A stretch of DNA of 64,000 bases from an uncultured virus (IMG/VR IMGVR_UViG_3300042294_002635). Taxonomy: Duplodnaviria > Heunggongvirae > Uroviricota > Caudoviricetes. Positions 4,836 through 46,894 of the stretch are shown here, piece by piece. A model generated the notes under the pieces. The model was not told where the DNA came from. It did not search any database and worked only from the letters and a program-made list of their open reading frames with translations. How positions within the stretch are numbered: position 1 is the stretch's first letter; every line of letters begins with the position of its first letter. The DNA lies in the IMG/VR virus record IMGVR_UViG_3300042294_002635. The stretch is one strand, 5' to 3'. The translations under genes and the position numbers were made by a program.

Positions 4836-5378
4836 ATGACTAACAGCAAGACCTCATTTCTCCTAACTCAAAACCACCTGAAACTGCTGAGAAGAATGCA
4901 CGTTGGGTGGAGCAACTGTGAATTCGGTGCTCCGGAAATAGACCCGAAAAGACCGTATGGCAACAGTTGGGTTATCGGAGACATACACGAAATTCTGACT
5001 GGAGAAGACCTAGAAGAATTGACCGAGTCACAGGAAGAGGAGTACAGGCAGCTCCACGAACAAACTCAAACAGCCCTCCAAATCATTCTCTCTACGGGGA
5101 AGTTTGAGGAAGGTTTGTACATGCTTACTGAACCGTATTCTTCTACTTGGGTGCGGAAAGCCATGATCAATTCCATGGCCTACAAAGACTACACAGCCAG
5201 TATGGTCTTCGATACTGAAGACATGATTATTGTTGGTCGTGTCCTAGACATCGACGACATTATCTCGTTTCACGGCGAAACGATAGCTGAATTTGAATCC
5301 AACTTTCATGCAGCCATCGAAGACTATCTAGCCGCATCGCAGGAACTTGGTTCTTCGCCGGAAAAGCCCGCAAGTTAA
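4836..5378 (+). CDS. Fusion of a phage hypothetical domain and a truncated HicB antitoxin
   Basis: From 5163: MAYKDYTASMVFD...IIVGRVLDIDDIISFHGETIAEFESNFHAAIEDYL...PEKPAS; stops where the HicB RHH domain would begin. Confidence 0.8.
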   Translation: MTNSKTSFLLTQNHLKLLRRMHVGWSNCEFGAPEIDPKRPYGNSWVIGDIHEILTGEDLEELTESQEEEYRQLHEQTQTALQIILSTGKFEEGLYMLTEPYSSTWVRKAMINSMAYKDYTASMVFDTEDMIIVGRVLDIDDIISFHGETIAEFESNFHAAIEDYLAASQELGSSPEKPAS

Positions 5379-5394
5379 GGTACTTAGGAGGTCT

Positions 5395-5432
5395 AAGGCT
5401 CGGTTTCAGGTTCGAGTCCCGCCAGTTCCATT
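5395..5432 (+). repeat. Degenerate copy of the 3' end of tRNA-Lys (4786-4823)
   Basis: 33/38 nt identical by manual alignment. Confidence 0.8.
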
Positions 5433-5444
5433 TTCACACGAACA

Positions 5445-5642
5445 ATGAACAGAGTTTCAATTGCGATCTTAGCGCTTTGCACCGCTTTATCTGGCAACGA
5501 GGCATTGTGCAAGACCCAAGTAGTGATTACAGGTAGGAACGCAGAAGAAGTACAAAGAAATGCGTTCAGGACCAAAATGAGCTACCCGCTCAGGCCTCTA
5601 AAGTGTAGTCAACGGTGCTCCCAATTGTGGGAAAGAGATTGA
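5445..5642 (+). CDS. Small protein with predicted signal peptide
   Basis: 65 aa, hydrophobic N-terminus. Confidence 0.5.
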   Translation: MNRVSIAILALCTALSGNEALCKTQVVITGRNAEEVQRNAFRTKMSYPLRPLKCSQRCSQLWERD

Positions 5643-5675
5643 GTGTGATGTGGGGACTCTCAGCCCTAAAGAAAG

Positions 5676-5719
5676 GGCGGTCTCCCGCCTTGCCTTTCCC
5701 CCATGAAAGGCGGTATGAT
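5676..5719 (+). promoter_or_regulatory. Conserved early-promoter-like element
   Basis: GGCGGTCT, TTGCCT-18-TATGAT. Confidence 0.7.
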
Positions 5720-5740
5720 TATAGCGTGTAAACGATTCAA

Positions 5741-5992
5741 ATGACAAACCTTTCCCGGTCCGCTCAGGCGGTTCTGAACACTGTCTTAAATGAAGCGGAG
5801 CCTCGATCCGCGCAGTTACAAGCGATAGCAGATGCCGCTGCCGTTCTCTGAGTCGCTGCGAATCAAGTGGTGACACCCGACCTCTGCGGCAACGACTGCT
5901 GCATCACCCAATGCGAGCAGATCCGTGCCGAACTCTTCGCCATCACCACCGAACTAGAAGGGCGGTTACCCGCCTTGCCTTGCCTTTTCTAG
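5741..5992 (+). pseudogene. Interrupted member of the LSPxAQAV...ELxAIATELE small-protein family
   Basis: MTNLSRSAQAVLN...AAAVL*VAANQVV...IRAELFAITTELEG; in-frame TGA at 5849-5851; paralogs at 39231 and 40568. Confidence 0.65.
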
Positions 5993-6056
5993 GAAAAGCT
6001 AGCCATAGGGCACCGGGCCCAAGGGTCCCGCTCCTAAGATCTCACCACGGGGAATG

Positions 6057-6100
6057 GGCGGTTTCCCGCCCCCTCTCCCTTGCCGTGAACACGCTAAAGT
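6057..6100 (+). promoter_or_regulatory. Conserved early-promoter-like element (a degenerate copy also at about 5961-6009)
   Basis: GGCGGTTTCCCGCC ... CGC-TAAAGT. Confidence 0.6.
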
Positions 6101-7016
6101 TAATCAGCTCACCTTCCACCGTCAACCATCCAATGAAATACCGCATTCGACACGAAGTATGAAACCCGAAAACCCGTACGTTCGCGCTGTAGTTGGCCTT
6201 GTGTTCTTTACTGCGGCACTCGGACTAGTAATTCAAGTGGTGGCGGCAATTGACGTGGCCATCCGTAGAGCCGATGAGCATGCCTCCAAGACTGAGAGAG
6301 AAGAAGAGAAAGTCCTAGCTGAAAAGTGCAAGTTACTGAGCAATTCGGCTCGTGCCTCCGTGTACATAACCCAAGAGCCCTTGAGCCTCTACATTTGCAG
6401 CGACCAGGGTGTCTCAACTTACTTTGTGACACGTAGGCTGTTCCCCCAGGTTTGCTCAGTTGGGCAAAGCCCCGCACCTTATACCCGCACGACTCTTTCC
6501 AAACAAACTACCCCCTTGAACGAAACAATGACCACAACACTGCGGGACCACCCACTGTCTGGCGGGCTTCGCGCAGGTTATGGGAGGGATAGGTGCTTTT
6601 GCTCTCTCACCTAAAGAAGCGGGAGAGGTGCTTCTCGGATCGAATGCAGCAGACCACTTCTTCGACACTGACAAACAAGCACTTGTTTTCCTGGAACAAG
6701 TTATTGAACGTAATTCCCATTCAGTACCCCCCACTGAGTAGTATGAAAATCACGTATAACGCACCGTCGAAAGTTGAACGCACCGTCGAACTTAACGAGT
6801 CCGATTTCCCGCCCCTTTATGGCGCGATCCGAGACTGTTTCCTGCAGAGACTTAAATCTTTCGGCTTGTCCAACCCGTTCTTCCCCTTTGAGTACGAAGC
6901 GATCGAGTTCTGTCGCACGGCGGGAGTTGATACGACTAATCGCATAGACGTGGTCGAATTCTTTGAGACGCTTCTTTTGAGGGGAACCACCGAAGCTTCA
7001 GACAATCAGGAGGGGA

Positions 7017-7460
7017 ATGAAAACGGCAATCACTAGCTTAAGGGTGGCCGAGAAGGTTTCGGTGAAGTCAGGGGACTTTCCCAACATCCCCTATCTAATT
7101 GTCAACCTAACCTGGAAAATCTCACCTGACGACTTTTACTTTCAGGCGTTCCTTGACGATACGAAAGATATCGTGCAGCAGATAAGTGTTGTAGACCCCG
7201 ATACGTGGAACGACCCGTGCTCGCTACACGAAACGAACTTTGAAAAAGTTTGGATTCCGCACGGGGATAGGTGGAGGTACATTCCAAAGTTCAACACTTT
7301 CTGGTACAAGGATTACGTTTCAGACTGCCCGGTTGTTAGGGCCACCTTAAAAGAGCTCGAACACTTTCAGCAGAGGGAAGAGTTTTCGTCGGAGTACCGG
7401 TTTTTCGATGAGAGTATTTTGTACAAGCATCTCTCGGTCTTGTGCACCTTTACGGACTGA
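7017..7460 (+). CDS. Hypothetical protein
   Basis: 147 aa ORF, ATG start. Confidence 0.55.
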   Translation: MKTAITSLRVAEKVSVKSGDFPNIPYLIVNLTWKISPDDFYFQAFLDDTKDIVQQISVVDPDTWNDPCSLHETNFEKVWIPHGDRWRYIPKFNTFWYKDYVSDCPVVRATLKELEHFQQREEFSSEYRFFDESILYKHLSVLCTFTD

Positions 7461-7798
7461 TCCGGGTAAATTACACTATACAGACCTTTCGCAGAGCAAC
7501 GTTGGAACAAACGAATAAAGAGCCAGAGTGTTGCCGCAGAAGTTTCGGCGCATCCTTGATTGACACAGCTAAACGAATGCTGGAAGATCCGTCGTTTGCC
7601 CCTCGCCAAGTGGCGAAGGACCGACTCTCAATTTGTGAGAGCAATGTGTGCGGATCCTTTGAAGAAAAAAGTTCAACCTGTGACGAGTGCGGGTGTTTTC
7701 TACCCGCTAAGACAACAATGGCAAACATGCGATGCCCGCGAGACTACTGGGTTGAGTGGGTGAGAGGGGAGTCCAATGACGCAGGAGAGGGGGCTTAA
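7442..7798 (+). CDS. Cys-rich small protein (DUF6171-like); true start probably downstream
   Basis: RLSICESNVC...CDECGCFLPAKT...CP..W. Confidence 0.65.
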   Translation: MHLYGLIRVNYTIQTFRRATLEQTNKEPECCRRSFGASLIDTAKRMLEDPSFAPRQVAKDRLSICESNVCGSFEEKSSTCDECGCFLPAKTTMANMRCPRDYWVEWVRGESNDAGEGA

Positions 7799-7859
7799 GT
7801 CAAGGGTGCCTTGCAGATAAGGTTTACTCCCCCTGTGGGACGCTATTCTAGTTATGAAA

Positions 7860-7931
7860 GCCCTGGTAGCTCAGTGGAAGAGCACTGTCCTTCTAAGACA
7901 CCGGTCGTGGGTTCGAATCCCTCTCAGGGCG
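7860..7931 (+). tRNA. tRNA-Arg(TCT)
   Basis: Acceptor GCCCTGG/TCAGGGC, loop CT-TCT-AA, T loop TTCGAAT; no encoded CCA. Confidence 0.9.
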
Positions 7932-7972
7932 TCGGTTGCCTTTGCAGCCAAACTAAACAACAACAATAAAAA

Positions 7973-8137
7973 ATGGCAAATCTTTCTATAGTTGATCGTG
8001 CCGCACGAATTAGCAGCAAAAGCCCCAGGGGAGCAAAGCTCCTTCTGAAGCTCAGCGAGGCAAGCACCGGCACTGAAGTTCAAAGTGCCCTTGACGAATT
8101 TGACCTGGCATTCGGAGTTCAAACTCCCTCTGTCTGA
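7973..8137 (+). CDS. Small hypothetical protein (54 aa)
   Basis: Manual translation MANLSIVDRAAR...EVQSALDEFDL; A-rich leader. Confidence 0.6.
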   Translation: MANLSIVDRAARISSKSPRGAKLLLKLSEASTGTEVQSALDEFDLAFGVQTPSV

Positions 8138-12027: not shown

Positions 12028-12501
12028 ATGGAAAACATACCCGAAGCACCCGAAGCATACGTGATGGTCGGAGCCCCTGGGTCCGGAAAGTCGACTCATG
12101 TATCAAAGCTGCTAAGTCTTCACCCAGATGCCGTTGTAATTTCCGGCGATGAAATCCGCGCTGAGCTCTACGGAAACGCGGACATTCTAGGAAATTACGT
12201 AGAAATCCACGACCGCATGCTTGAGATTCTGGAGGAGAGTGTAGGTCGGACTATAGTTATGGATGGTACCCACTACAAGGCAGCTTACCGCAAGGAAGCA
12301 ATTGCTACGCTGAACTCGTACGGTTACGATAAGGTTACTGCAGTAGTCATTGAAAAGCCCCTCACCGTTTGCCTACACCAGAATGCTTCTCGCGAGCGCA
12401 GGGTTCCGGAAGAAGTGATTGAGCGCATGCACGCCTCCTTACAAGCTTCCCTCAAGAATATCACCAACGAACCCTTCCACCGTATTGACTTTGTATACTG
12501 A
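12028..12501 (+). CDS. Polynucleotide-kinase-like P-loop kinase (AAA_33)
   Basis: GAPGSGKST, ISGDEIR, MDGTH, RERRVPEEVIERM. Confidence 0.85.
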   Translation: MENIPEAPEAYVMVGAPGSGKSTHVSKLLSLHPDAVVISGDEIRAELYGNADILGNYVEIHDRMLEILEESVGRTIVMDGTHYKAAYRKEAIATLNSYGYDKVTAVVIEKPLTVCLHQNASRERRVPEEVIERMHASLQASLKNITNEPFHRIDFVY

Positions 12502-15904: not shown

Positions 15905-16306
15905 GTGACACCTAAAAATAACCCCTTAGTAGTGTTTGACATTGATATGACACTTACGAGTGAGTGGTATTACGAAGATAATGTTGCAACGCTTCGAGCC
16001 AATTTGCCACTCGTTCAACTTGCGACATTGCTGGCTGACTCCGGGGTTTCAATCGTGATATCCACTGCTCGCCCAAATCGTCTTCGAGCCGACTCAGAAA
16101 ACTGGCTACAAAGTGTGGGTGTTAAGTTCGACGCCTTATACATGAGAGAGGACGGGGACGATCGCCCCGACCACTACGTTAAGACCGAGCAAGCTCTCGC
16201 AATTATTGAAGATTTCGGACGCCCTTCGCTTTGGTACGACGACAACCAAGACAACTGTAAAGTTGTGAGAGAACTTGGGATTCCTTGCGTTCAGGTTATG
16301 CAATGA
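15905..16306 (+). CDS. HAD phosphatase (PNK 3'-phosphatase-like)
   Basis: VFDIDMTL, STARP, LYMREDGDDRPD..VK, YDD. Confidence 0.85.
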   Translation: MTPKNNPLVVFDIDMTLTSEWYYEDNVATLRANLPLVQLATLLADSGVSIVISTARPNRLRADSENWLQSVGVKFDALYMREDGDDRPDHYVKTEQALAIIEDFGRPSLWYDDNQDNCKVVRELGIPCVQVMQ

Positions 16307-17214: not shown

Positions 17215-17997
17215 ATGAGTTACACAGGACAGTTAATAACCTTTGAAGGTCTTGACGGCTGCGGAAAAACAACCCAGCTCCACGCTGTGTTTGACTGGCT
17301 ATCACGTAGTGGGAGACTACCCGAAGGGACCAAGGTTGTTACAACTCGAGAGCCAGGATGTTTACCAGGTGTGCGAGACTTGCTTAAGAACCCTAAGGCT
17401 GCGATCACACCGAAAGCCGAACTTTTACTGCTCATGGCCGACCGGGCTCAGCACGTTGCAACAGTAATAATGCCAGAGCTGGAAAAAGGTAACTGGGTGT
17501 TATGCGACCGATTTTACGCGAGCACCTTAGCCTATCAAGGGTGGGGACGAGGTTTGGGGCCTGAAGCGGTAGAGAAAGCCCACGAACTTGCCTGCGGAGT
17601 CTTGTACCCTGACTTAGAACTGTTTTTCGACGTCCCCGCTGATGAGTCTATGAGACGGATCTCAAGGCGAGAAAACGAAGGGCTGTCTGTCCGAGACAGA
17701 TTTGAGCGGTCAGAACGACCTTTTTTCGACCGCATACTTACGGGATTTCAAAAGCCCAACGAACAACTGGGAGTGAAATGTTACCCCGTGGTTACAATCG
17801 ACGGGTGTCAAACGGTTGACGAGATTACCCGGGAATGCATACGACTAGTATCCCAACTTTTGCCCCGAGAGGCGAACTTCACGGACGTGCCACCGTGCCG
17901 AGTAGACGATCCCGAGTTTTGGTACGACACTTCTAAAGAAACCTACAAAGTTCGGCTTGAGCGGGAGACCTCATGGAGTCAGCCACGATCTTGCTAG
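17215..17997 (+). CDS. tmk: Thymidylate (dTMP) kinase
   Basis: FEGLDGCGKTTQ, TREPG, ADRAQH, CDRFYASTLAYQG. Confidence 0.92.
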   Translation: MSYTGQLITFEGLDGCGKTTQLHAVFDWLSRSGRLPEGTKVVTTREPGCLPGVRDLLKNPKAAITPKAELLLLMADRAQHVATVIMPELEKGNWVLCDRFYASTLAYQGWGRGLGPEAVEKAHELACGVLYPDLELFFDVPADESMRRISRRENEGLSVRDRFERSERPFFDRILTGFQKPNEQLGVKCYPVVTIDGCQTVDEITRECIRLVSQLLPREANFTDVPPCRVDDPEFWYDTSKETYKVRLERETSWSQPRSC

Positions 17998-18034
17998 ACT
18001 GACGAAAAACTCTGTTAAAACTTCCACATTTGAT

Positions 18035-18397
18035 ATGAAACCTTTTCTACACGGGAGGATACATGCCAGAAAGTACGGAGGCTCACCCGACGACTACGCT
18101 GATATAGACGACTTTATTGACAGTAGCAAGATTGCCTTTCCCGACATTCGTCACCGGGCATTGCTGCACTCGTCGTTCGGGTGTTTTGTCGTTGAGCAGA
18201 TGTTCGGTCGCACACGCACAAACTCTGCTGGAATAACTTACTCTCCCCGAGACATCGCCGAAGATCACATTATTCAAGACCTCGGGTTCATTCCCACGGT
18301 CGAAAAGTACCTAAACAACATGGTTGCACAACCGTGGATGTCTGGCACTAACAAGTCACCCAACAAACAAACCAAATTCATTCCAATCGGAGACTAA
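18035..18397 (+). CDS. Conserved phage protein (DUF6915-like)
   Basis: H...ARKYGG..DDY, DSSK, RHRALLHS.FG, IAEDHI..DLGFIPT. Confidence 0.75.
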   Translation: MKPFLHGRIHARKYGGSPDDYADIDDFIDSSKIAFPDIRHRALLHSSFGCFVVEQMFGRTRTNSAGITYSPRDIAEDHIIQDLGFIPTVEKYLNNMVAQPWMSGTNKSPNKQTKFIPIGD

Positions 18398-18400
18398 ACC

Positions 18401-18850
18401 ATGTCACAATCCCTCGACTTACTTATTCAAGAGTTTACAGAGCAACAAGAGAGATTCCAAAAGGTCGCTCAGGAGAGGCTAAAAGAGTACTTTGCTGAGT
18501 TCTGGGAAAAGAACCCTGCGATTAAGGCCTTACATTGGTCTCAGTACGCCCCGTACTTCAACGATGGGGAACCTTGTACGTTTAGTGTGCATGACCCGTA
18601 CTTCACGAACGCCGAAGGAGACGATCTTGACGACTTGTCACGCTGGGGGGAGTACGACGGTGAGAAGGAGGGTGTGTGGTCGGACCTAGACCCTAGATTC
18701 GATGGTGTGGACGTTGAGTCCACACAATCCCTGGCGAAACTACTCACATCAGGTGTTATGGAGCCGATCATGAAGATCATGTTTGGTTCTGACAACGTCA
18801 TAGTTGCGACTCGGGAGGGTTTCAGCGTAGACTACGCTGAACATGACTGA
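18401..18850 (+). CDS. Conserved phage hypothetical protein
   Basis: WSQYAPYFNDGEPCTFSV, C-terminal HD. Confidence 0.7.
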   Translation: MSQSLDLLIQEFTEQQERFQKVAQERLKEYFAEFWEKNPAIKALHWSQYAPYFNDGEPCTFSVHDPYFTNAEGDDLDDLSRWGEYDGEKEGVWSDLDPRFDGVDVESTQSLAKLLTSGVMEPIMKIMFGSDNVIVATREGFSVDYAEHD

Positions 18851-18866
18851 CTTGATGAAGGGGTTG

Positions 18867-18930
18867 AACGGTTAACCCCTACCCTAGGGCGGTTTACCCC
18901 CTTTGCTCTGCTCCACAGAAACGGTATAGT
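18867..18930 (+). promoter_or_regulatory. Conserved early-promoter-like element
   Basis: CGGTTAAC, GGCGGTTT, TTGCTC ... CGG-TATAGT. Confidence 0.75.
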
Positions 18931-18954
18931 TAAAGGGTCAATCCGACAACGAAA

Positions 18955-19485
18955 ATGCTTACCCAAACTGCTCAGCCCCTTGATAAGCAGCACGCTGGAC
19001 AAATTCTCCTTCGTGCTACGCGATTCCTGACTGCACCCACCCTAAGCCCCCGACCCGACGGGTCTGTGAGGGATGTAGCACTCGACACCCGCTGGCTGGG
19101 GCGAGACCTCGTGCGTGAGGTCTTTCGGGGCCGAACTGCTGACGAAACGGATGGAAAGTACGTGGACGTTGTTACGGACAACGGTAAAAGGCTGCGAGTG
19201 TTCACTCGCGTCATTTCACGTAGAGCCAATAACGCACTGGTCGCACTTGCGGGGTCTGCTGAGATAAGCCCTATCAACTTCGCATCTGAAGCAGATAAGC
19301 CAGACTCAGTCTTGCTCGTTGCTGTCAATCCTCAGCGAAACACTGTTGACGTCTTTGACTTCCCCCTTGAAGACCGAGACGGGAAGAAAGTGACCAGGGA
19401 GAACTTAGCCGTGTCCTGGTCTGTGAAAAAACAGAATTACGGTAAGCACCAAGCAAAGCTCACGTACAGCTACAAAGCTAACTGA
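18955..19485 (+). CDS. Hypothetical protein
   Basis: 176 aa ORF between two promoter elements. Confidence 0.7.
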   Translation: MLTQTAQPLDKQHAGQILLRATRFLTAPTLSPRPDGSVRDVALDTRWLGRDLVREVFRGRTADETDGKYVDVVTDNGKRLRVFTRVISRRANNALVALAGSAEISPINFASEADKPDSVLLVAVNPQRNTVDVFDFPLEDRDGKKVTRENLAVSWSVKKQNYGKHQAKLTYSYKAN

Positions 19486-19523
19486 GATCTGCTAGTCTCT
19501 AGCAGCACTTTCACCGGGCAAGC

Positions 19524-19589
19524 GACGGTTAACCGAACCTTTCGAGGACGGTTTCCCCGCTTGCCTTTTCAATCGTAAGACGCTATAGT
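19524..19589 (+). promoter_or_regulatory. Conserved early-promoter-like element
   Basis: Double GACGGTT box, TTGCCT-17-TATAGT. Confidence 0.8.
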
Positions 19590-19595
19590 AGTAGT

Positions 19596-20201
19596 ATGGA
19601 ACTAAAATCAACCCTTTCTGAGTCGTTCTTTCGCCGGTTCTGCCCAGATCCCACGGTGATGTACGATCTTGGAGAGATCTACGCAGAATTTAACGCCCGT
19701 TACTTCAACGGGGACTTACCAGTTCTTCCCTGTAAGACTCGGACAGACGAAAACGGAGAAACTTGGTCGCGATACGACACTCTAAAGTGGGACGGTCGCA
19801 TGGGTCGCAGAATCCTTGGCACATACAAAACGTCTGCACGACGTGGGTTCGGAACCATTCGCCTCTCTCGCGTAATTGCAGGTGACCCTGTAAAAACACG
19901 AAGCGTCCTCCTGCACGAGATGCTTCACAAGTATCTTGATCTTGAGCGCCAAGACGACGGGATTAAAGGCCACGGTGAAAACTTCGTGAAGGAGGCAAAG
20001 AGAATCAACGAACTTTGTGAAAGCACCGGAGTTAAACACCGCATTCACTTCTACGAAGACGAGATTACACAGAGTCAGCCATTCGTCATACCTGAGCTTT
20101 TGGGCGACAAAGTTCATTGTAGCAAAGATCTAGACATTGCTCGAAACATGCAGTCTGTGATGAGGGCCGCGTTCTCACAAAAATTCGAGTACTTTCAGTG
20201 A
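19596..20201 (+). CDS. SprT-like zinc metalloprotease
   Basis: FNARYFNGDLP, IRLS, VLLHEMLH, GHGENF. Confidence 0.8.
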   Translation: MELKSTLSESFFRRFCPDPTVMYDLGEIYAEFNARYFNGDLPVLPCKTRTDENGETWSRYDTLKWDGRMGRRILGTYKTSARRGFGTIRLSRVIAGDPVKTRSVLLHEMLHKYLDLERQDDGIKGHGENFVKEAKRINELCESTGVKHRIHFYEDEITQSQPFVIPELLGDKVHCSKDLDIARNMQSVMRAAFSQKFEYFQ

Positions 20202-20701: not shown

Positions 20702-22189
20702 ATGACATTTGTGACAGAAAACTTAACGAAGAGTTCTAAAGCTGCTTCGAACGGAAATGAAAAATGCAACGATAACTGTTCTGTGAGTGAAGCCGTTGTC
20801 TGTGATTTACGCTCTCGCCCGGAACCTCGTCGAATTGACCTCGACAAACTATACGAGTGCGACCCGAAAGACTACATTGGCTATTTCGCCGACGAAACCT
20901 CTTACGACAACCTTATTCAAGAAGACTGCGACGTTTATGTGGGCGGAGTGAAAGTTGTTGCCTTTCGTAAGGCACTTTTTCCGAAGCTGCGCGATGGTTC
21001 GAAAGGTAGCCCGGAAACTTGGAAATACTTCCGCTGGGCAGCAAGAGACTTGTACTCAGACCAACGAGGCCTAGTTGCTGGTAGAGAACTAACTACCCAA
21101 CTCGAAATAAGGGTAACCAACGGTATTCTAAACTTCTTCAAGAAGGCGATGGCCGGTCAAGTCACTGACGTGGAAGAGGCACTGAAAATTGCTTCTCTCT
21201 CCCCCGACATGTCAAAGCTCACTGTCCGAGTGAATGATGTTAAAAAGGACTTCCCAGAAATTGAGAAAGCTTTAGAATCTATCGAGAAGGAACTTCGCAA
21301 GAAAACGCTGAGCGAAGAGAGAAAGGTAGAGCTGAAGGAAGCGAAGGGTAGGGAACTTGCGAAGTGGTTCCCGACTTGGCTGTCTGAGACTTGGAGTGCA
21401 TCTACGGATAAGGTTTCTGAGGCGAAACGTGCCGACGACAGGTATGTGGGAAAACAATACCGTTCAAACAAGTGCTATTCCAACGTGATTGGTGCTTTTG
21501 ATAGGGGTGCACGTAACCCTTACGGTCGCCTAACTGCAACTACCGTTCGAGATTACGAAGGGTTCGTCAGTCACACTGATATTTATCAGACCGCGTGCTC
21601 TGCGCTCAAAGAGACCTTAAACACTCCGGAAAACCCTAGGTGGGACCTCCTTCACGAACGGTTCAGTAACGTGAAAGACCCGCACTATAACCTCTTCGGT
21701 ACGGTGTTCACTGCCCTTACGTTAAACTGGAACTTCCGCTGTGCGATGCACTATGATGGAAATAACTGTGAAGGGGGTATCGCCGTTCTTACCGCAATTA
21801 CCCAAGGTGACTATGACGGTCACTACCTTGTGTTCCCTGAAATTCGTTGCGCTTTCGACCTTCGTGATGGGGACTTTATTGCCGGTGACAATCAGGGACT
21901 GATTCACGGTAACACTGCAATGATTCCGAAGACGCCGGACGCTGAACGAGTTTCGTTCGTTTTCTATTCACGAGAGCGCATGACCGCTCTTGACGATATG
22001 GAGTGTGAGGAGTGCCGCCGAGATTTCATGCGATACGCAGCAGACAATCACAAGGAGTATGGAAAGGGTCACAAGACCTGGAATGGTGTTTGGAGCGGAA
22101 TGTGGAAATCACCGGAATGGATGTCGTATAAAGCCAAACACGGCATGGAACGTTGCTCAAACACCAACTACTGGGGCACCGAGAATTAA
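20702..22189 (+). CDS. TET/JBP-family 2OG-Fe(II) dioxygenase, copy 1
   Basis: TVFTALTLNWNFRCAMHYDGNN (HxD), LVFPE, IHGNT, ERVSFVFYSRE, Trp-rich tail WNGVWSGMWKSPEW. Confidence 0.85.
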   Translation: MTFVTENLTKSSKAASNGNEKCNDNCSVSEAVVCDLRSRPEPRRIDLDKLYECDPKDYIGYFADETSYDNLIQEDCDVYVGGVKVVAFRKALFPKLRDGSKGSPETWKYFRWAARDLYSDQRGLVAGRELTTQLEIRVTNGILNFFKKAMAGQVTDVEEALKIASLSPDMSKLTVRVNDVKKDFPEIEKALESIEKELRKKTLSEERKVELKEAKGRELAKWFPTWLSETWSASTDKVSEAKRADDRYVGKQYRSNKCYSNVIGAFDRGARNPYGRLTATTVRDYEGFVSHTDIYQTACSALKETLNTPENPRWDLLHERFSNVKDPHYNLFGTVFTALTLNWNFRCAMHYDGNNCEGGIAVLTAITQGDYDGHYLVFPEIRCAFDLRDGDFIAGDNQGLIHGNTAMIPKTPDAERVSFVFYSRERMTALDDMECEECRRDFMRYAADNHKEYGKGHKTWNGVWSGMWKSPEWMSYKAKHGMERCSNTNYWGTEN

Positions 22190-22241
22190 CCCTGAAGCCG
22201 CCAAAGCGGCAGTTAATGAACGAAACACAGAATTACTAACA

Positions 22242-22706
22242 ATGGACACAAACAAACAGCTTAACGGTGGCTACGCGGAGCGGCAAGTTGCCTCGGGGAT
22301 TAATGACCCCCGTGAATCAACAACCCCCCTTACAGACGAACAAATGTTCGGTCGCACTCGAACAAACTCTGCGGGAATAACCTACTCCCCAAGAGACATT
22401 GCCGAGGAGCGGCAAGTTGCCTCAGGGATTAGTGACCCCCGTGAAGCAACAACCGCCATTACAGTGGAACTCCCTGTAAACTTCGCTGAGGCTTTTCGAG
22501 CACTTGCTGAACAAGAGGAGTTGTCGGAGAGTAACCTTATTGTACGATCGCTCGGGCTCTACTCCGTTGCATCTCAAGCCGAGAGTGAAGGGTACGGACT
22601 AACGTTCACTCGCATCGAAGGAACCAATGACCTGACCGCCAAGGAAGCAATTCGCATCGAAGATGAGCCCGCGTCTAACTTGATTCTTCCTGGAAATAGG
22701 CAATGA
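22242..22706 (+). CDS. Mosaic protein with internal repeat and possible ribbon-helix-helix domain
   Basis: ERQVASGI.DPRE twice; ITVELP...FRALAEQEELSESNLIVRSL. Confidence 0.55.
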   Translation: MDTNKQLNGGYAERQVASGINDPRESTTPLTDEQMFGRTRTNSAGITYSPRDIAEERQVASGISDPREATTAITVELPVNFAEAFRALAEQEELSESNLIVRSLGLYSVASQAESEGYGLTFTRIEGTNDLTAKEAIRIEDEPASNLILPGNRQ

Positions 22707-24246: not shown

Positions 24247-24252
24247 TGTTTT

Positions 24253-29722: not shown

Positions 29723-30355
29723 ATGGAATCCCACACCAATTACCCCAGGACTTTTCATCTCCCTTGGTCAGAAGCTGTAACGTCTGACGACAAGGTTGTT
29801 CCGTCCGTCGTTCATTTTGAGGGCAACCTCGTGGTTGTGACGGAAAAGATGGACGGTGAGAATACAACGATGTACCGAGACTATGTTCACGCCAGGAGCC
29901 TGGACAGCAAAGGTGGTGAAGACCGCGCATGGGTGAAGCAATTCTGGGCTTCGATCCGTAGTGAAATCCCTGAAGGGTGGCGAATCTGTGGTGAAAACCT
30001 CTGGGCGAAACATTCTGTTTCTTACTCCAACTTGCACTCATACTTTTACGGGTTTAGCATTTTTGACGAGCACAACCGGGCATTGTCATGGGAGGACACT
30101 GAAGACTACTTTGAAATGTTAGGGGTCACCCCTGTTCCCGTTCTTTACTCTGGACTCTGGGACGAGACCGTGGCCCTTAATCTGGCAAAGGGCCTGGACA
30201 CCAACACGACAGAAGGCTATGTAGTTCGCCTTGCTGATTCCTTTCACTACGATAACTTTAGCACTTCTGTTGCTAAGTTTGTCCGTAAAGGTCACGTTCA
30301 AACTGACAAGCACTGGAGGACGCAGCAGCTTGTACCTAACTCTTTAGTAACCTAA
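29723..30355 (+). CDS. RNA ligase (ATP-dependent nucleotidyltransferase domain)
   Basis: YPRTFHLPWS, motif I EKMDGEN, ICGENL, EGYVVR, AKFVR. Confidence 0.88.
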   Translation: MESHTNYPRTFHLPWSEAVTSDDKVVPSVVHFEGNLVVVTEKMDGENTTMYRDYVHARSLDSKGGEDRAWVKQFWASIRSEIPEGWRICGENLWAKHSVSYSNLHSYFYGFSIFDEHNRALSWEDTEDYFEMLGVTPVPVLYSGLWDETVALNLAKGLDTNTTEGYVVRLADSFHYDNFSTSVAKFVRKGHVQTDKHWRTQQLVPNSLVT

Positions 30356-34463: not shown

Positions 34464-34488
34464 CTTAGACATCATACGCCAAAACACC

Positions 34489-34818
34489 ATGCAATCCGTT
34501 AAACCTCTCGCAAACGAAGCCGAGTACGACCTTGCGCTTAAGGACATTGATAGCTGCTTGGGTGCATTGGTTGGTAGCCCCGAATACCTCCAGCTAGAGA
34601 CCTTGACAATTTTAGTAGAGGAATACGAGGCCAAGAACTGGCCTATTGCTCCCCCGGACTTGAATCCAAATCTTGAAGAGTGGTGCAGAATCGACGAAAT
34701 AAACCAAGGGGAGTACCTACGGGCTTTGGACGCGAGCCTGGTCGAACGACTCCAGTCACTGGTGGCGGGTGTCCAAGTCGACCTCGACGAGATCCTATCG
34801 CCGGACGAGTCCGACTAG
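34489..34818 (+). CDS. Chimeric antitoxin-like protein (HigA-type N-terminus, PrlF/SohA-type C-terminus)
   Basis: KPLANEAEYDLAL..I...G.PE..LE.L.ILVEEYEAKNWPI.PPD, then LRALDASLVERLQSLVAGVQVDLDE.LS. Confidence 0.65.
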   Translation: MQSVKPLANEAEYDLALKDIDSCLGALVGSPEYLQLETLTILVEEYEAKNWPIAPPDLNPNLEEWCRIDEINQGEYLRALDASLVERLQSLVAGVQVDLDEILSPDESD

Positions 34819-35703: not shown

Positions 35704-36432
35704 ATGACAAACAGAGAAGAAAGAATTAAACTCCAAACAACCGTTACAGCAGTGATTCATCAGGAAGGCCCATGGTGGGTGGGCCGGACTGAAGAGATTC
35801 CAAGGGTGGTTGCCCGGTGGCGTACTAGTGTGGGGTGTTTACACTACCTTGAGAAGGCGCTACGTGGTGAATCAGCGAGTACACTTGACAGTTGGTCACC
35901 ACAACCACAAACCCTTGAGCAAGTTGACGAAGGACTGCGCACAGCGTTTCGAGAGTCCCTAAAAGAGTGGGATTTGACTAAAGATGGTTCTTCCCCTTCT
36001 GTCCCGAATGTATCTCATCCAATTGAACAAAATTCCGACGCAATGACTCAGCACAATTCGATTGAAGTTCCCGATGAACTAATAGAGAGCTGGTGGCCCA
36101 TTGATCAGGAGATGCCCCCCACCAGTGCCCTCCAGCCTACGCGCAACTTCGCTAACAAGGTCGCACAATGGGGCGCCGACCAAGAGCTTGATGCTTGCTG
36201 CGAATGGTTGCGCCTCCAAGAAGATCCTCAGTTTAGTTCCGACGACGGGTGGGTGGGTAAAGACCAGGAACTTCGTGAAGCACGCAGGCCCAACGTACCT
36301 ACACTTAATGAAATTGCTCTGCAATTCATGGGGACCATCGAGAAAGACGGACGGTACCTACCCGAGATTACAAGCACTATTGTAAGAGCTTTGGTTGAAG
36401 GAGGGGAGGCTCTAAAAGAGCTCAATGGCTGA
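35704..36432 (+). CDS. Mosaic protein with HicB-like N-terminal fragment and cyanophage-type domain
   Basis: TAVIHQEGPWWVGRTEEIP; AQWGADQELDACCEWL. Confidence 0.55.
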   Translation: MTNREERIKLQTTVTAVIHQEGPWWVGRTEEIPRVVARWRTSVGCLHYLEKALRGESASTLDSWSPQPQTLEQVDEGLRTAFRESLKEWDLTKDGSSPSVPNVSHPIEQNSDAMTQHNSIEVPDELIESWWPIDQEMPPTSALQPTRNFANKVAQWGADQELDACCEWLRLQEDPQFSSDDGWVGKDQELREARRPNVPTLNEIALQFMGTIEKDGRYLPEITSTIVRALVEGGEALKELNG

Positions 36433-37932: not shown

Positions 37933-38448
37933 ATGATTAACCGAACTCTGATAGCGAGAATCCAGAGCTACTACCAGAACTGGTTCCAGGACACGAATTG
38001 GAGTGACGAGGACGTTCTCGATGCCATTACCATAGCAAAGCGTGTTGAGTCCGGAGAAGAAAAAACATATTCCTTTGAGGAAACAATGGAAGATCTCGAA
38101 CTCACCGGGGAACTTGGGCTGGTGACCCGCACCGAGAGGGGATTTGAGGTTATTGACTTTCAAGATCTACACAACAAGGAGTGCAGCCTGCAACAAAGCT
38201 CCCTTGCCGTTTATTGGGAGCCAGGGACGTCTGCGGTGTGGTTGGGCCAAGGGGAAGATAGAATGCACCTTGGGGAAGAACAGGTTCAGTCCCTGGTTAC
38301 TGTTTTGCAAAGGTGGTTGGACACAGGTTCTTTCATTCCCTACCCTACTACAGAAGTATCACCCCTCTCAAAATTTGCTGGGCGCCTTAAGAACATTTTT
38401 GGGCTTACCTTAAGACCACTCAAATCACTCACAAACCGAAACCAGTGA
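37933..38448 (+). CDS. Fusion of a RelB-like antitoxin tail and a conserved phage domain
   Basis: ED.LDA..IAKRVESGEEKTYSFEETMEDLEL; TERGF...F.D....CSLQQSSLA...AVWLG...RMHL. Confidence 0.55.
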   Translation: MINRTLIARIQSYYQNWFQDTNWSDEDVLDAITIAKRVESGEEKTYSFEETMEDLELTGELGLVTRTERGFEVIDFQDLHNKECSLQQSSLAVYWEPGTSAVWLGQGEDRMHLGEEQVQSLVTVLQRWLDTGSFIPYPTTEVSPLSKFAGRLKNIFGLTLRPLKSLTNRNQ

Positions 38449-41748: not shown

Positions 41749-42855
41749 ATGAAAACAAAAACCGCAGCAACCGCAGCAACTGTCTTGGCTTTGACTTTCG
41801 CCTTAGCAACCCTGCTCTCGGCAACACCGGCACTCGCAGCGTCAGCCGGACGAATAAGCGGACGGAGCTTTCGCAGTTCGTCTAGCTATAGCCGACCATC
41901 TCGGTCCCCAAGTTTCGGGAGTAGTCGCTCCAGCTCTCCAAGCTATAGGGCCTCTCCCTCACCGGTGCTAAGAAGCACCCCTGCACCGGGGCTGAGTAGA
42001 AGTCCAAGCTACTACGGTGGCAGCCCTTCGAGAACGTACCGAACAACACTACCCTACAGCAACCCAGGGAGCAACAGAACGAACATCATTGTGATGCCGG
42101 ACATGACACCGAACGTTTATCCGGTTGCTCCTCCACTTTATTCGTCGCAAGTGGCACCAGTGCCGCAAACACCTGTGAGTCCCGCATTCTTTTTTGGGAT
42201 TCTTGCTGTGTTGGGGGTCGGGGGCTTGGCCATCTTTCTGCTGGCCGGGGGTTGGGACAACTTTGTGAGCCCATGGGTGAGTACTCAGCGGGACAAGCTT
42301 AGAAAGACGACCGTAGTGAGGCAGCGAGTGGCCTTGCTTGCGTCTGCAAAGGACCTACAAACAGACCTAATTCGACTGGCTCGGCGAGGGGACACGGACA
42401 GCCCAGAGGGTCTCTCGAAGATCCTGCAAGAAACTTCCCTCGCCCTTCTTCGCCACCCCGACAAAGTTGTTTACGCGTGGAGCAGTACTGAGCAAGTGGC
42501 GCCTGACGACGCAGAAAGCCGATTCGACCAACTTTCCATGGGAGAACGCTCGAAGGCATCAAAGGAAGTTCTCACGAATGTGGGCGGGAGCATCTCAGAG
42601 CGTAAGGTCAAACCCCAAAGGGGCGTAAGGGAGAACGAGTATATCCTTGTGAGCGTTCTTGTGGCGTCGGACCGGAAACTGGATCTCAAACTGTCGGACT
42701 CGCACGAGAGCTTGAACGCCAATCTTGTAACCCTTGGTTCAGTCTCTCCTGAGGATCTGGTGGCACTGGAAATTATTTGGCAGCCTGAAGACGAGTATGA
42801 TGTTCTGTCAAAGGATGAACTTTTGAGCCTGTATCCTGACTTAAACGTTCTGTAG
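41749..42855 (+). CDS. DUF1517 family membrane protein (FLAP1/FlpA-like)
   Basis: Signal peptide, ALAASAGRISGRSFR, Ser/Pro linker, TM helix, QVALLA-like strand, LQETSLALLRHP, F.QLS..ERSK.S.E.L.NV, EYILV, EIIWQP. Confidence 0.88.
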   Translation: MKTKTAATAATVLALTFALATLLSATPALAASAGRISGRSFRSSSSYSRPSRSPSFGSSRSSSPSYRASPSPVLRSTPAPGLSRSPSYYGGSPSRTYRTTLPYSNPGSNRTNIIVMPDMTPNVYPVAPPLYSSQVAPVPQTPVSPAFFFGILAVLGVGGLAIFLLAGGWDNFVSPWVSTQRDKLRKTTVVRQRVALLASAKDLQTDLIRLARRGDTDSPEGLSKILQETSLALLRHPDKVVYAWSSTEQVAPDDAESRFDQLSMGERSKASKEVLTNVGGSISERKVKPQRGVRENEYILVSVLVASDRKLDLKLSDSHESLNANLVTLGSVSPEDLVALEIIWQPEDEYDVLSKDELLSLYPDLNVL

Positions 42856-43086: not shown

Positions 43087-43150
43087 GCGGATAACCGCCC
43101 TGAGCGGGGCGGTTTAGGCCCTTGCTTCATCGCGACAAAACCGCTAAAGT
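43087..43150 (+). promoter_or_regulatory. Conserved early-promoter-like element
   Basis: GCGGATAAC, GGCGGTTT, TTGCTT-17-TAAAGT. Confidence 0.75.
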
Positions 43151-43386
43151 AAATGTATGGAAAACTTCCGCGCCATTTGCGCTGCCCTACTCGACGAGAT
43201 ACCCTACGAGTCCCCCACAACGTGCCTCGCACTTGCAGCGTTGAAAGAGTCGCAGGTAAAGGGACCGACTGAAAAAGACATCTTCAATCTCATTTCTTGG
43301 ATGATTGACCAGAGAGTTATTGATAACGACTCCGGTGAAATATCTGAGGCGATACAGAGAGTAATTGACTTGTTTAGGGAAACACT

Positions 43387-44397: not shown

Positions 44398-45309
44398 ATG
44401 ACTTATGACGAAAGTATAGATAAAGTGGTTAAGGAAGATTGTATTTTAGCAGTTAAAAAGCTACCTGAAAACTATGCTCACTTGATACTGAGCGACATCC
44501 CCTACGGCATATCGACGGAAACTTGGGATGTTTTGCACAATAACAATAACTCAGCATTATTGGGATCAAGCCCAGCTCAGCGTAAAGCTGGAGATGTTTT
44601 TAAGAGGAGGGGGAAACCTATCAACGGTTGGTCAAAGGAAGACCGTAAGATACCCTTCGAATACTACGAGTGGTGCCTAAGTTGGGCTCCCGACTGGTTA
44701 AGAGTTGTTAAACCTGGGGGGACTGTATTTATACTCCCCGGTAGAAGATTTGCACATAGGTGCATTAGCGCCATGGAGGACTCAGGTTTCAACTTTAGAG
44801 ACACTTTGGTTTGGGAGAAACCCGGTGCTGCCCACAGAGCCCAGAGAGTTTCTTCCGTTTTCGATAGGAGGGGTTCAGAGGTAGACTCTGAAACTTGGAA
44901 AGGTTGGAAGTTGGGAAACTTGAGACCTATCTGGGAACCTGTACTATGGTTTTCAAAGCCCTATCCATCAACTATTACGGATAACATCCTGAAACACGGG
45001 GTTGGGGCTTTCAATGAGCAAGCCTTCTTAAAGTATCAGAGTTACCCCAATAACATTATCTCCTTGGGTTATGGTACTGGAGAACGTGGTATGCACCCCC
45101 ACCAGAAACCTTTATCACTAATGAAAGCATTGATCGATCTCACTACTAAAGAGAACCAGCTTGTGCTGGATCCTTTTTGCGGTAGTGGGACTACTTTGGT
45201 CGCCGCTAAGGAGTTAGGTAGACATTTCCTTGGTTATGACAATGACGGGGAGTGTGTAAAAACTTGCAAGTCAAGGTTAAGAAACCTAAGAGAAATCAAT
45301 AATGACTAA
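44398..45309 (+). CDS. Beta-class amino DNA methyltransferase, M.HindIII-like, no cognate endonuclease in window
   Basis: SDIPYG, WDVLH.N.NSAL.G.S.AQ, FKRRGKP.NGWS, HRAQR.S.VF.RRG, NLRP..EP.LWF.KPY, QKP, DPFCGSGTT. Confidence 0.88.
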   Translation: MTYDESIDKVVKEDCILAVKKLPENYAHLILSDIPYGISTETWDVLHNNNNSALLGSSPAQRKAGDVFKRRGKPINGWSKEDRKIPFEYYEWCLSWAPDWLRVVKPGGTVFILPGRRFAHRCISAMEDSGFNFRDTLVWEKPGAAHRAQRVSSVFDRRGSEVDSETWKGWKLGNLRPIWEPVLWFSKPYPSTITDNILKHGVGAFNEQAFLKYQSYPNNIISLGYGTGERGMHPHQKPLSLMKALIDLTTKENQLVLDPFCGSGTTLVAAKELGRHFLGYDNDGECVKTCKSRLRNLREINND

Positions 45310-45311
45310 AT

Positions 45312-45385
45312 CACCATACGGTGTACAAAGGTGTGGAATTTATTGGTCTCGGTGAGCTATCCTTCCTCGACATGGACGTTTAATC
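45312..45385 (+). repeat. Diverged duplicate of the 3' end of the metallophosphoesterase gene (43951-44024)
   Basis: HHTVYKGVEFIGLGELSFLDMDV* versus HHTVQNGVEFIGLGELSFLDLDV*. Confidence 0.9.
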
Positions 45386-45509
45386 AAGCCCCCACTCATA
45401 GGGAACGTTGTACGAAGGTCAATTACAAGGAAGCTACACCGCTATACTAAGTTTGTGGCACCCTTCTTTCTCCCTATGAGCCTTAACTCAAAACCACCAT
45501 TAAAGCAAA

Positions 45510-46079
45510 ATGACAACAGTAATTAACCTCTTCGGCGGTTCCGGTTGCGGAAAATCAACCACAGCTGCGCTCCTCTTCGCCAAAATGAAGCTGGCCGGCA
45601 TTCACGTTGAACTTGTAAGAGAGTATGTGAAGTACTGGGCGTGGAACGACCGCAAAGTGCGTGAGTGGGACCAACTCTACCTCCTCGGTAAGCAAAGCGC
45701 CTACGAGAGCATGCTGTACGGCAAAGTTGACTACATTGTCACCGACAGCCCTATACTTCTGGCAGGAATCTACCAAGACTACCGGTCTCAAGGCAAAGAC
45801 ACGTACGTAAGTTCCGCCGCTCAATCCTTCATGGCTCACGCAGAGGAAAGGGGTGTAACGTACAAGAATTTCTTCCTAAATCGCATCAAGCCCTTTGACC
45901 CTCGCGGACGTTACGAAACCGAGGATCAAGCCAAAAAGGTTGACGAGTTTGTCTACGACTATCTGTGCAAGTATAGTGGATTCCGCCCAATTACAATATC
46001 TGGACCGGACGAACGCAGGGACACAGAGATTTTGAGCTATCTTGGTGAGCTGCATTTCAAGGAGGCTCCCTCGCTGTGA
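45510..46079 (+). CDS. P-loop nucleotide-kinase-like protein (AAA_28 / NadR-like)
   Basis: INLFGGSGCGKST, EYVK, TDSP, GR. Confidence 0.8.
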   Translation: MTTVINLFGGSGCGKSTTAALLFAKMKLAGIHVELVREYVKYWAWNDRKVREWDQLYLLGKQSAYESMLYGKVDYIVTDSPILLAGIYQDYRSQGKDTYVSSAAQSFMAHAEERGVTYKNFFLNRIKPFDPRGRYETEDQAKKVDEFVYDYLCKYSGFRPITISGPDERRDTEILSYLGELHFKEAPSL

Positions 46080-46274
46080 CACTAACTTTCCGAGAACTTT
46101 TAGAAAGTTTGCAGACTTTTTCTAACGATGACCTGGACAAGGACGCTACTGTGGGGGTAGACGGGGAATTTTTTGGAGTGTCGCACTTTGGAGTGTCCAC
46201 CTGTTTGGACGACACACCGCTTGATGAAGGTCACCCTTTTCTTTCAATAGCAACAAGATAGAGTGTTGCCTTAG

Positions 46275-46317
46275 GGCGGTTTCCCGGCTTGCTTTGCTGG
46301 GGCAAAACCGCTATAAT
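46275..46317 (+). promoter_or_regulatory. Conserved early-promoter-like element
   Basis: GGCGGTTT, TTGCTT-17-TATAAT, palindrome TTTGC-TGGG-GCAAA. Confidence 0.8.
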
Positions 46318-46540
46318 ACGTTCATAACACCTGAAAACCAATGTCATACGACCCGGACTCAGATACCTACCCCTTCAACGACAGCGAGACTCTGTTAAAC
46401 TTCCTGGACCGTCTTCTACTGGAGTCCGTGTCGTGCGAAGGCGGGCTTGTGCCCCTCACAGTCTCAAGGATGGAGCGAATCGCTAAGCTAACTGAAGGTG
46501 TCTCAATTGACGATTGACCTTGACCCCCGTTGGGCGGTGA

Positions 46541-46603
46541 GCGGTTAGCCCCCTTGCCGTGGGCGGTTTCCCCGTTTGTTTTCCAGAAGGAAAACACTAT
46601 ATT
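46541..46603 (+). promoter_or_regulatory. Conserved early-promoter-like element (last copy in window)
   Basis: GCGGTTAG, GGCGGTTT, TTGTTT-16-TATATT, palindrome GTTTTCC-AGAA-GGAAAAC. Confidence 0.75.
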
Positions 46604-46627
46604 ATTTACGTGACCTTCGAAGAACCA

Positions 46628-46894
46628 ATGTCATTCAACCCCGACTGGGCTTCACCTCCAGGGTATATCGTAGAGGAGTTACGCCTAGAGCGTAGAATTT
46701 CTCTTCACGACTTTGCGGGAGAAACAGGGTTAACCGTGCCCGAAGTCCTTGAACTTGAGGAGGGGACCCTTCGCATTGACCCTCATCTTGCTGAGCGCCT
46801 TGAGTACGTGTTCGGACAGCCCCCTGAAAAGTTTTGGCTCACCCTTCAACTAAACTACGACAATGATCTTAAAAGAGGAAGAAAGCATGATTGA
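46628..46894 (+). CDS. Orphan HigA-like XRE HTH antitoxin/regulator
   Basis: FNPDWASPPG, FA..TG, I...LAERLEYVFG....FWL.LQ.NYD. Confidence 0.8.
   Translation: MSFNPDWASPPGYIVEELRLERRISLHDFAGETGLTVPEVLELEEGTLRIDPHLAERLEYVFGQPPEKFWLTLQLNYDNDLKRGRKHD

Follow-up and report, generated by a model that had tools for sequence, protein, structure and literature searches.

Domain-trimmed orphan copies of host antitoxins in a jumbo myophage as candidate decoys against type II toxin–antitoxin defence

Orphan antitoxins of phages and plasmids are known or proposed as counter-defence against toxin–antitoxin (TA) systems. Dmd of phage T4 is an antitoxin mimic that binds the toxin directly and is not known to be homologous to the antitoxin it replaces. 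Gp145 of ICP1 is likewise described as a phage protein that binds the toxin and takes the place of the antitoxin without being homologous to it (PMC13728456). The orphan DarG-like (NADAR) antitoxins of T-even phages counter DarTG1 and are an established case of counter-defence; as presented in the sources, they are enzymes that reverse DNA ADP-ribosylation (PMC11825919; PMC13728456). The cyanophage S-CREM1 carries three orphan antitoxin genes, YefM, TacA and MazE, whose products are proposed by the authors to bind host toxins during infection; these are whole antitoxin genes, and the authors report no phage–host homology for YefM or MazE (PMC9964418). Orphan antitoxins such as hipB in the leading regions of plasmids, also on a mobile element, are proposed to act against TA systems of hosts or competitors and appear from their description to be whole, without trimming or chimeras (PMC11541004). 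Here we describe a set of orphan antitoxin-like modules in a stretch of 64,000 nucleotides (nt) of an uncultured caudovirus (IMG/VR IMGVR_UViG_3300042294_002635; the whole stretch is referred to as the window), comprising two HicB types, a chimera of a HigA N-domain and a PrlF C-tail (HigA-N::PrlF-C), a RelB-like tail and a HigA-type helix–turn–helix (HTH) module.

The set probably consists of domain-trimmed copies of host type II antitoxins that would act as stoichiometric decoys against host TA defence. Since related contigs reach 277,244 bp (contig G205 from IMG/VR, 98% complete by CheckV), the window is part of a jumbo myophage of ~277 kb, and the host is presumably a freshwater picocyanobacterium, as the closest hicB-bearing metagenome-assembled genomes (MAGs) are labelled Synechococcaceae, Cyanobium and Prochlorococcaceae. 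The modules resemble the T-even DarG-like proteins, as far as these are described, in being phage homologues of bacterial antitoxins with no toxin partner, thought to be bacterial in origin and with one domain lost, but differ in being predicted non-enzymatic binders of type II RNase toxins, of which several occur per genome, some of them chimeric or fused (PMC11825919; PMC13728456). With S-CREM1 the phage shares the character of a picocyanobacterial myophage with several toxin-less antitoxin genes (PMC9964418), but here the modules are trimmed, one is 95% identical in DNA to a host gene, one is a chimera of two families and some are fused to phage domains. Unlike Gp145, they are homologous to antitoxins, and their toxin-binding segments resemble those of canonical HicAB, HigBA, PrlF-YhaV and RelBE/ParDE at 38-96% identity. 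None of the modules is itself a TA system, because none has an adjacent toxin and three of them have no DNA-binding domain. At the level of titles and abstracts, the literature yielded no description of phage-borne trimmed type II modules, of a two-family chimera or of near-identity to a host allele; trimming, chimera formation, fusion to phage domains and closeness to the host allele accordingly appear to be what is new here.

The hicB fragment and its host counterpart

The first module lies in a fusion open reading frame (ORF) of 180 amino acids (aa) at 4836..5378 on the + strand, which carries all long ORFs of the window. Residues 1-109 form a phage domain that also occurs in Gordonia and Microbacterium phages and gave no usable match in the ESM Atlas, and residues 110-180 are a host-derived HicB N-terminal domain. 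The latter matches phrog_9151 ('HicB-like antitoxin') with E 3.3e-21 over profile positions 1-71 of 119, and in a comparison with the 129-aa HicB of Burkholderia phage ST79, a protein whose annotated neighbour is a HicA toxin, 36 of its 71 residues agree with those at positions 1-71. With host HicB as tblastn query, residues 1-71 are recovered at 5163-5375 with 95.8% identity (E 3.9e-43), bearing out an earlier note on this DNA that had read the ORF by eye as a HicB N-domain fused to a phage domain and cut before its ribbon–helix–helix (RHH) part. Nucleotide alignment with host genomes shows that 5158..5375 holds the last 5 nt of hicA and hicB codons 1-71, at 86-95% identity in all five candidate host genomes; homology begins 5 nt before the hicB ATG and stops exactly after codon 71, where the phage has a stop codon. 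The module ends at HicB position 71, without the C-terminal RHH/HTH part, and host HicB runs on to 120-139 aa, with PF05534 spanning residues 55-105. A genome scan returned 125 relatives among 522 pattern hits, and the best 80 of these were kept; those at the top, all in MAGs of picocyanobacteria, have 92-96% identity. At the top host loci an 84-aa HicA overlaps a HicB of 120-139 aa that continues into the DNA-binding part (PF07927, PF05534), and HicA proteins beside host counterparts of the modules match PF07927 with E 2.1e-8 and 1.6e-9. Searches of the PDB by sequence gave no match for the fusion protein or for host HicB.

Among 14 related viral loci, 11 have the full 180-aa fusion, one is cut by a contig end, and the remaining two are L020, in which the phage N-domain is disrupted by a frameshift and the HicB part is still open, and the sister phage L021. 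Because L021 has the phage domain only, the ~290-nt piece containing the hicB fragment (hicB′) is taken to be an insertion in this lineage. The remainder of the insert (5376..5444, + strand), absent from L021, includes a degenerate stretch resembling a tRNA T-arm and 3′ end (~5390-5431), for which neither ARAGORN nor Rfam made a call and an exact 22-mer search found one unrelated genome only. The peptide RFQVRVPP that follows the stop codon was considered as a frameshifted RHH remnant and rejected, since the sequence is tRNA-T-arm-like and has no homology to host hicB. Faster divergence of hicB′ than of the flanking DNA among phage strains was also considered and dropped, as the whole 3500-8000 region is ~5% divergent. 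In a tree of hicB′ the phage copies fall into a clade with the hosts L027, L029, L030 and L034 (support 100/99) and are not resolved as monophyletic, which is compatible with a single capture as well as with repeated exchange. In two of these hosts (L029 and L034) hicB is itself truncated after the residues EKP, near the phage breakpoint, so that its products are 98 aa long and lack the part that binds DNA.

The four further modules

The earlier note had also called, by eye, a HigA-like N-terminus joined to a PrlF-like C-terminus, a HicB-like start of the ORF at 35704, a RelB-like tail at 37933 and a solo HigA-like HTH. All five ORFs exist as it described them, and every call finds a host counterpart beside a toxin gene, with the RelB-like call standing at moderate strength. 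Loss of the DNA-binding domain, which it had extended to most of the set, holds for the hicB fragment, the chimera and the RelB-like tail; the solo HTH module keeps its HTH, and the host counterparts of the HicB-like start had no DNA-binding domain to lose. Its further proposal, capture of toxin-binding segments, is borne out at the DNA level for hicB′ and by the retained HigA N-domain of the chimera, and fits less well with the complete HTH and with the ~28 residues of the RelB-like tail.

The chimera is a 109-aa ORF at 34489-34818 (+ strand). Its N-module (34489..34659) corresponds to the part of host-type HigA that precedes the HTH, found by tblastn at 59.6% identity over 57 aa (E 3.3e-19). 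In hhalign, residues 1-65 align to residues 1-64 of host HigA at 99.5% (E 1.4e-22, 66 columns, 53% identity); the alignment stops before the host HTH, and no HTH family of Pfam matches the ORF. In DNA the N-module is 71% identical to G003 over 34486-34584. Host HigA proteins have 143-157 aa and follow HigB (PF09907, E 5.6e-33 and 6.6e-30), and their C-terminal HTH matches the solved HigA of E. coli and Shigella (5ifg_B, 5ycl_A). The C-module (34702..34815) is a PrlF-type acidic C-terminal tail without the SpoVT/AbrB-type DNA-binding domain that forms the N-terminus of PrlF (profile positions ~1-60): residues 72-106 match positions 65-99 of 99 of PF15937 (E 2.2e-6, 28.2 bits, below the 32-bit cut-off), NCBIfam PRK09974 is matched with E 8.1e-7, and hhalign against ten host PrlF proteins gives 89.7% (E 1.8e-6, 30 columns at 53% identity), aligning the tail to residues 102-131 of 132. 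Of 201 host-family genomes, 16 have PrlF above its cut-off, and the gene after it in the hosts encodes YhaV (PF11663, E 3.7e-59). The nine known relatives of the chimera are all phage-type; alleles at 64-100% identity keep both modules and confine insertions and deletions to the linker, and one relative is fused to an upstream HTH_17 gene. In an AlphaFold2 (AF2) model with a mean pLDDT of 65.9, the N-domain consists of two helices (pLDDT 73-88) and the tail is of low confidence. Searching the PDB by sequence with the family profile gave chance-level rows without HigA, YhaV and PrlF as queries had no match there, tblastn against the phage collection found nothing, and peptide patterns searched against genome contigs returned one irrelevant locus only.

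The second HicB type is a mini-HicB-like domain resembling the UPF0150/HicB_lk type (35731..35871, + strand) at the start of a 242-aa ORF (35704-36432), joined to a widespread phage domain as carrier (36043..36429, + strand; phrog_32006, E 1.4e-13). Pfam, PHROGs and NCBIfam gave no HicB match for it; the evidence comes from tblastn (47.5% identity over 40 aa, E 4.1e-8) and from residues ~10-56, for which 11 of 201 host-family genomes contain 12 matching places with E<1e-3, the best being 5.7e-7. At four of nine inspected + strand host loci the match is an ORF of 69-81 aa directly followed by a 61-aa HicA, and identity to these mini-HicB ORFs is 41-47%. In the AF2 model the N-part forms four strands followed by a helix (pLDDT 70-83 over residues 1-60; mean of the model 65.6), and structure rows of the Atlas that are named HicB reach TM 0.59-0.72. 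Among 44 related viral loci, six match the whole of residues 1-242; in the other 38 similarity begins at residue 98 or later (>=98), and the C-domain that they share stands behind other N-modules. A sixth module lies beyond the window, in a 206-aa phage ORF (L217:6344-6961; G205:26344-26964), where a mini-HicB at residues ~57-117, with other sequence on both sides, is 56% identical to host mini-HicB (tblastn E 3.7e-15; hmmsearch E 4.9e-19).

The RelB-like call is the weakest of the five and may be taken as moderate, given a similarity of ~28 residues. It concerns an add-on (38002..38109, + strand) at the start of a 171-aa ORF (37933-38448) whose carrier is again a widespread phage domain (38125..38334, + strand; phrog_3849, E 5.9e-15). 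The add-on matches the RelB-like NF048017 with E 0.002 over profile positions 37-68 of 70 only, so that the N-terminal RHH is not covered, and hhalign against the RelB-like C-terminal tail gives 74%, rising to 94.4% (E 9.4e-8) once the independent relative P0154, which itself matches NF048017 at E 9.7e-4, is added. When 1.84 billion representatives were searched by phmmer with the add-on, the matches were its own family, a protein of 262 aa and P0153, a repetitive protein of 1199 aa that was discarded as spurious. The add-on is present in 2 of 16 aligned relatives, 16 of 23 having entered the alignment (P0021, P0023, P0025, P0026, P0029, P0031 and P0032 were left out). Searched against host genomes, the whole ORF matched none of five, and its matches in 4 of 201 (E 0.013-0.09) were not convincing. 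Host RelB-like genes occur above cut-off in 21 of 201 genomes, upstream of ParE/RelE toxins (PF05016, E 6e-15).

The solo HigA-type HTH module (46628..46894, + strand; 88 aa from the ATG at 46628) matches TIGR02607 antidote_HigA with E 1.6e-6 (27.8 bits, below the cut-off of 47.7), HTH_3 with E 0.0012 and phrog_2439 ('transcriptional regulator') with E 1.8e-5. Its identity to HTH modules of the hosts is 39-42% (best E 2.3e-14; 41.5% in tblastn), with matches in 14 of 201 host-family genomes, and its closest host proteins, which it matches at their N-terminal module, are 374-380 aa long, combine HTH_3 with Peptidase_M78 and follow a 109-aa HigB-like ORF (PF05015, weak, E 0.0078). As the DNA-binding fold is kept, this module could equally be an ordinary regulator.

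Orphan status, selection and rival explanations

No toxin family of TA systems was found by Pfam in the 109 + strand ORFs of the window, and a six-frame tblastn search in which seven host toxins served as queries had no match below E 0.05, in agreement with the earlier note, which had recognised no toxin beside any fragment. The only toxin-named Pfam match is to the kinase-type Zeta_toxin/AAA_33 at 12028-12498. Beside hicB′, PF07927 is not matched by any of these ORFs, and two host HicA queries reached at best E 0.074 in tblastn; no HigB was found by tblastn beside the chimera; and the ORFs neighbouring the solo HTH module match no toxin family, two HigB-like host proteins giving a best tblastn E of 0.73. 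HicA, YhaV and ParE were not found in the related contigs G205, G206 and G207, with control genomes positive for all three; a search of G205 for PF09907 (HigB) also found nothing, but no control genome was positive. Host antitoxin queries, by contrast with the toxins, match exactly the five places, RelB excepted. Host-like DNA within window positions 1-60000 is limited to hicB′ (5158-5375, the only long stretch), the HigA N-module (71%) and a trivial 35-nt run of Gly codons. Among the other 62 window ORFs, NCBIfam detects no further antitoxin family apart from a weak BrnA-antitoxin-like match, probably due to chance, in a 95-aa ORF between sheath and baseplate genes (61304-61588; NF047399, E 5.4e-4, 20.1 bits against a cut-off of 60), and among 150 of 338 ORFs of G205 outside the part equivalent to the window it finds no antitoxin, although this library also misses the mini-HicB modules.

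Purifying selection acts on the modules, with ratios of nonsynonymous to synonymous substitution (dN/dS) of 0.07-0.38 in four of the five: 0.07-0.20 for the HicB N-domain, 0.12-0.24 for the HigA N-domain, 0.34-0.38 for the RelB-like add-on (its core 0.18-0.19) and 0.09-0.11 for the solo HTH module; the mini-HicB-like part has too few changes for a value. Sequences of the first locus are present in RNA libraries: in six metatranscriptomic runs 52-64% of the words of 4836-5450 were found, and in the four runs examined a 702-nt contig spans 4886-5587 and bridges both junctions of the fusion. In other contigs of the same libraries the fragment stands in its host setting, preceded by hicA and followed by the RHH part. 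One contig of run X16 (record 12, on window 5158-5521) begins with 236 nt of hicA of the host type, runs on into hicB′ and continues as phage sequence after 5375; it is probably an assembly-graph chimera through the shared 218 nt, the alternative being a real third arrangement.

From what holds for AbrB- and RHH-type antitoxins, the PrlF and RelB tails would be expected to bind toxin, and the PrlF tail thus presumably YhaV. The N-region of HicB is described as binding HicA and blocking its active site, the C-terminal part as binding DNA (PMC6159526), and in E. coli-type HigA toxin interaction and dimerisation are placed in the N-terminal domain (PMC7160566); by analogy, the parts retained in the HicB and HigA modules would be the toxin-binding ones. 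In the proposed course of events, infection would cut the supply of labile host antitoxins or lead to their degradation, so that HicA, HigB, YhaV and RelE/ParE-type toxins would be freed; the phage modules would bind and neutralise these one-for-one, and abortive infection would fail. Modules without DNA-binding domains would not act at host TA operators. As to origin, promoterless host fragments would persist if they became joined in frame to a phage gene that is expressed, which may be why three modules (hicB′, the mini-HicB-like domain and the RelB-like add-on) are fusions to widespread phage domains, to which they are add-ons missing from sister strains. The boundaries of hicB′ at a start codon and a domain edge, and the host counterpart that each module has beside a toxin, support the decoy explanation. 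So do the orphan status of the modules, the near-absence of other host-like DNA in 60 kb, purifying selection, the RNA-library contig across the fusion, the sixth module of G205 and the precedents in other phages and plasmids.

A number of observations weigh against decoys. Toxin binding and neutralisation, like their timing and the benefit to the phage, are deduced from sequence; an anti-phage role of these host TA systems is presupposed; and the host assignment is based on the labels of MAG records. Some strains (L021, G206, G207, L173) do without certain modules or carry them in broken form: L021 (85% identity) has a phage domain of only 114 aa without hicB′, the next ORF following directly; the chimera of G206 is split by a frameshift in the linker; and G206 and G207 have another N-module before the carrier of the mini-HicB-like domain, where L173 is frameshifted. 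At three of the nearest host loci (L029, L030 and L034) hicA is frameshifted. The dN/dS is 0.5-0.7 for the PrlF tail, from 5-6 changes only, and 1.0 for the linker behind the mini-HicB-like part. Structural comparison adds little: Foldseek gave no row at the cut-off of E<=0.001 (best E 0.28-0.30 across the chimera and the mini-HicB-like module), E. coli HigA being the first row for the chimera at E 0.28 and HicB ranking 2 and 6 for the mini-HicB-like module, whose VIA fold matches to HicB have Z 3.2-4.3 and those to unrelated rows Z 5.9. For the RelB-like tail, a host RelB-like query found no tblastn match in the window at E<=1, and the phmmer search returned no RelB. The RNA libraries may hold DNA, and their contigs are without transcript ends.

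One rival explanation is neutral debris, that is, leftovers of illegitimate recombination with host DNA that are tolerated in a large genome and decay. The patchy distribution among strains, the frameshifts in L173 (mini-HicB-like module), L026 (chimera) and L020 (phage N-domain of the fusion), the linker dN/dS and the degenerate tRNA-like remnant that travels with the hicB′ insert all point that way. We nevertheless regard debris as quite unlikely, since dN/dS is 0.07-0.24 in hicB′, the HigA N-module and the solo HTH module at dS up to 0.5-2.1, breakpoints coincide with domain edges, the host-like pieces are all of one functional class with no other host DNA in 60 kb, and the HicB part of L020 stays open although the phage N-domain is broken. 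The modules may instead serve ordinary phage functions, the solo HTH as an XRE-type regulator and the HigA-N and HicB-like domains for dimerisation or for binding RNA or protein in fused phage proteins. Such roles are consistent with the complete HTH and with reports that N-terminal residues of SehB/HigA (PMC7160566) and HicB N-domains (PMC6159526) dimerise, but they leave unexplained the 95% nucleotide identity of hicB′ to a host TA gene, the PrlF tail on a HigA N-domain and the occurrence of five or six antitoxin families in one phage, and for the set as a whole they appear unlikely.

There is a small chance that the target is different, namely the toxins of competing mobile elements (prophages, plasmids or co-infecting phages), or that the modules protect from post-segregational killing. 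HicAB of this type is widespread in both Burkholderiales and picocyanobacteria, with 62-96% identity, a distribution suggestive of a mobile TA system, and plasmid leading-region antitoxins have been proposed to act against competing mobile elements or host TA systems (PMC11541004); the nearest hicAB, higBA and prlF-yhaV loci, however, are on long host contigs (to 88 kb, L030; several whole chromosomes). It is very improbable that the modules recruit host RNase toxins to the phage carrier domains and so redirect them to host transcripts. In favour are the covalent linkage of three modules to conserved phage domains of no assigned function and the RNA-repair-type genes and tRNAs that the phage also has, but an activity of the carrier domains is without any support and antitoxin binding, as described for HicB, normally occludes the active site of the toxin (PMC6159526). 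Decoys against host TA defence thus remain the preferred explanation, of which a renewable panel would be a more doubtful extension: toxin-binding modules trapped on carriers might be exchanged as cassettes among strains and kept in step with the host alleles in circulation, with a single 109-aa HigA-N::PrlF-C protein perhaps disarming the unrelated RNases HigB and YhaV at once.

The phage, its surroundings and what the modules may mean

By Pfam and PHROGs the window encodes a Mu-like portal, a tail sheath, a family-A polymerase with a gamma-type exonuclease domain and a GyrA-like subunit. No match to the window was found by megablast in the phage collection. A 368-aa protein (41749-42855) has a strong DUF1517 domain (E 1.9e-55), which we take to be typical of cyanobacteria and plastids and which would fit a cyanobacterial host. 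At ~18603 the window joins positions 65078->45600 (reversed) of G205 to 143642->187768, implying an inversion of ~98 kb (G205:45600-143642); the contigs G001, G206 and G207 all cross 17600-19600 unbroken, so that the order in the window is the common one. A dispersed intergenic repeat of ~65-80 nt occurs at 18866-18933, ~3519-3599 and ~43087-43168, with many copies (74-90%) across the same three contigs. The GC-rich hairpin GGCGG-N4-CCGCC is present in six copies against 0.01 expected (67, 5676, 5961, 6057, 26713 and 37633), three of them in a ~670-nt stretch without a convincing ORF (5380-6050). Promoter and terminator scans gave signals no higher than in shuffles.

A DNA hypermodification block (20702-28576) contains two 495-aa Tet/JBP oxygenase paralogues, a TET-associated glycosyltransferase (TAGT), an R2K ATP-grasp protein, a nucleotidyltransferase and an APH-like kinase. 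The RNA-repair-type genes are an AAA_33/PNK-like kinase (12028-12501, E 5.1e-20), a HAD_PNKP phosphatase (15905-16306, E 3.7e-17) and an RNA ligase (29723-30355, E 7.1e-33), which together with tRNA genes could form a second line against RNA-cutting defences. Two tRNA-like RNAs on the + strand (4123-4244 and 4710-4821) match the whole Rfam tRNA model with 44.7 and 48.5 bits, carry inserts of 57 and 52 nt at the position of the anticodon arm and received no ARAGORN call; upstream of both lies a gene (1360-2901) for a 513-aa Ro/TROVE-like 'RNA-binding protein' (phrog_850, E 1.4e-150; DUF2828/DUF7788), and we assume that this arrangement resembles that of a phage Ro-like protein with YrlA-type Y RNAs.

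TA systems are abundant in freshwater and estuarine picocyanobacteria, where they may have a part in defence against phages; if a phage carries copies of just those parts of five or six host antitoxins that grip the toxin, this points to toxins that need to be defeated. The modules offer concrete and testable pairs of phage and host proteins, nearly allele for allele in the case of HicA and HicB′, and their identity to host genes ties an uncultured jumbo phage to its host. Minimal modules of this kind could find use in research as small toxin inhibitors that work independently of operators. Capture of single domains, their assembly into chimeras and in-frame fusion would together constitute a route by which phages acquire genes for counter-defence.

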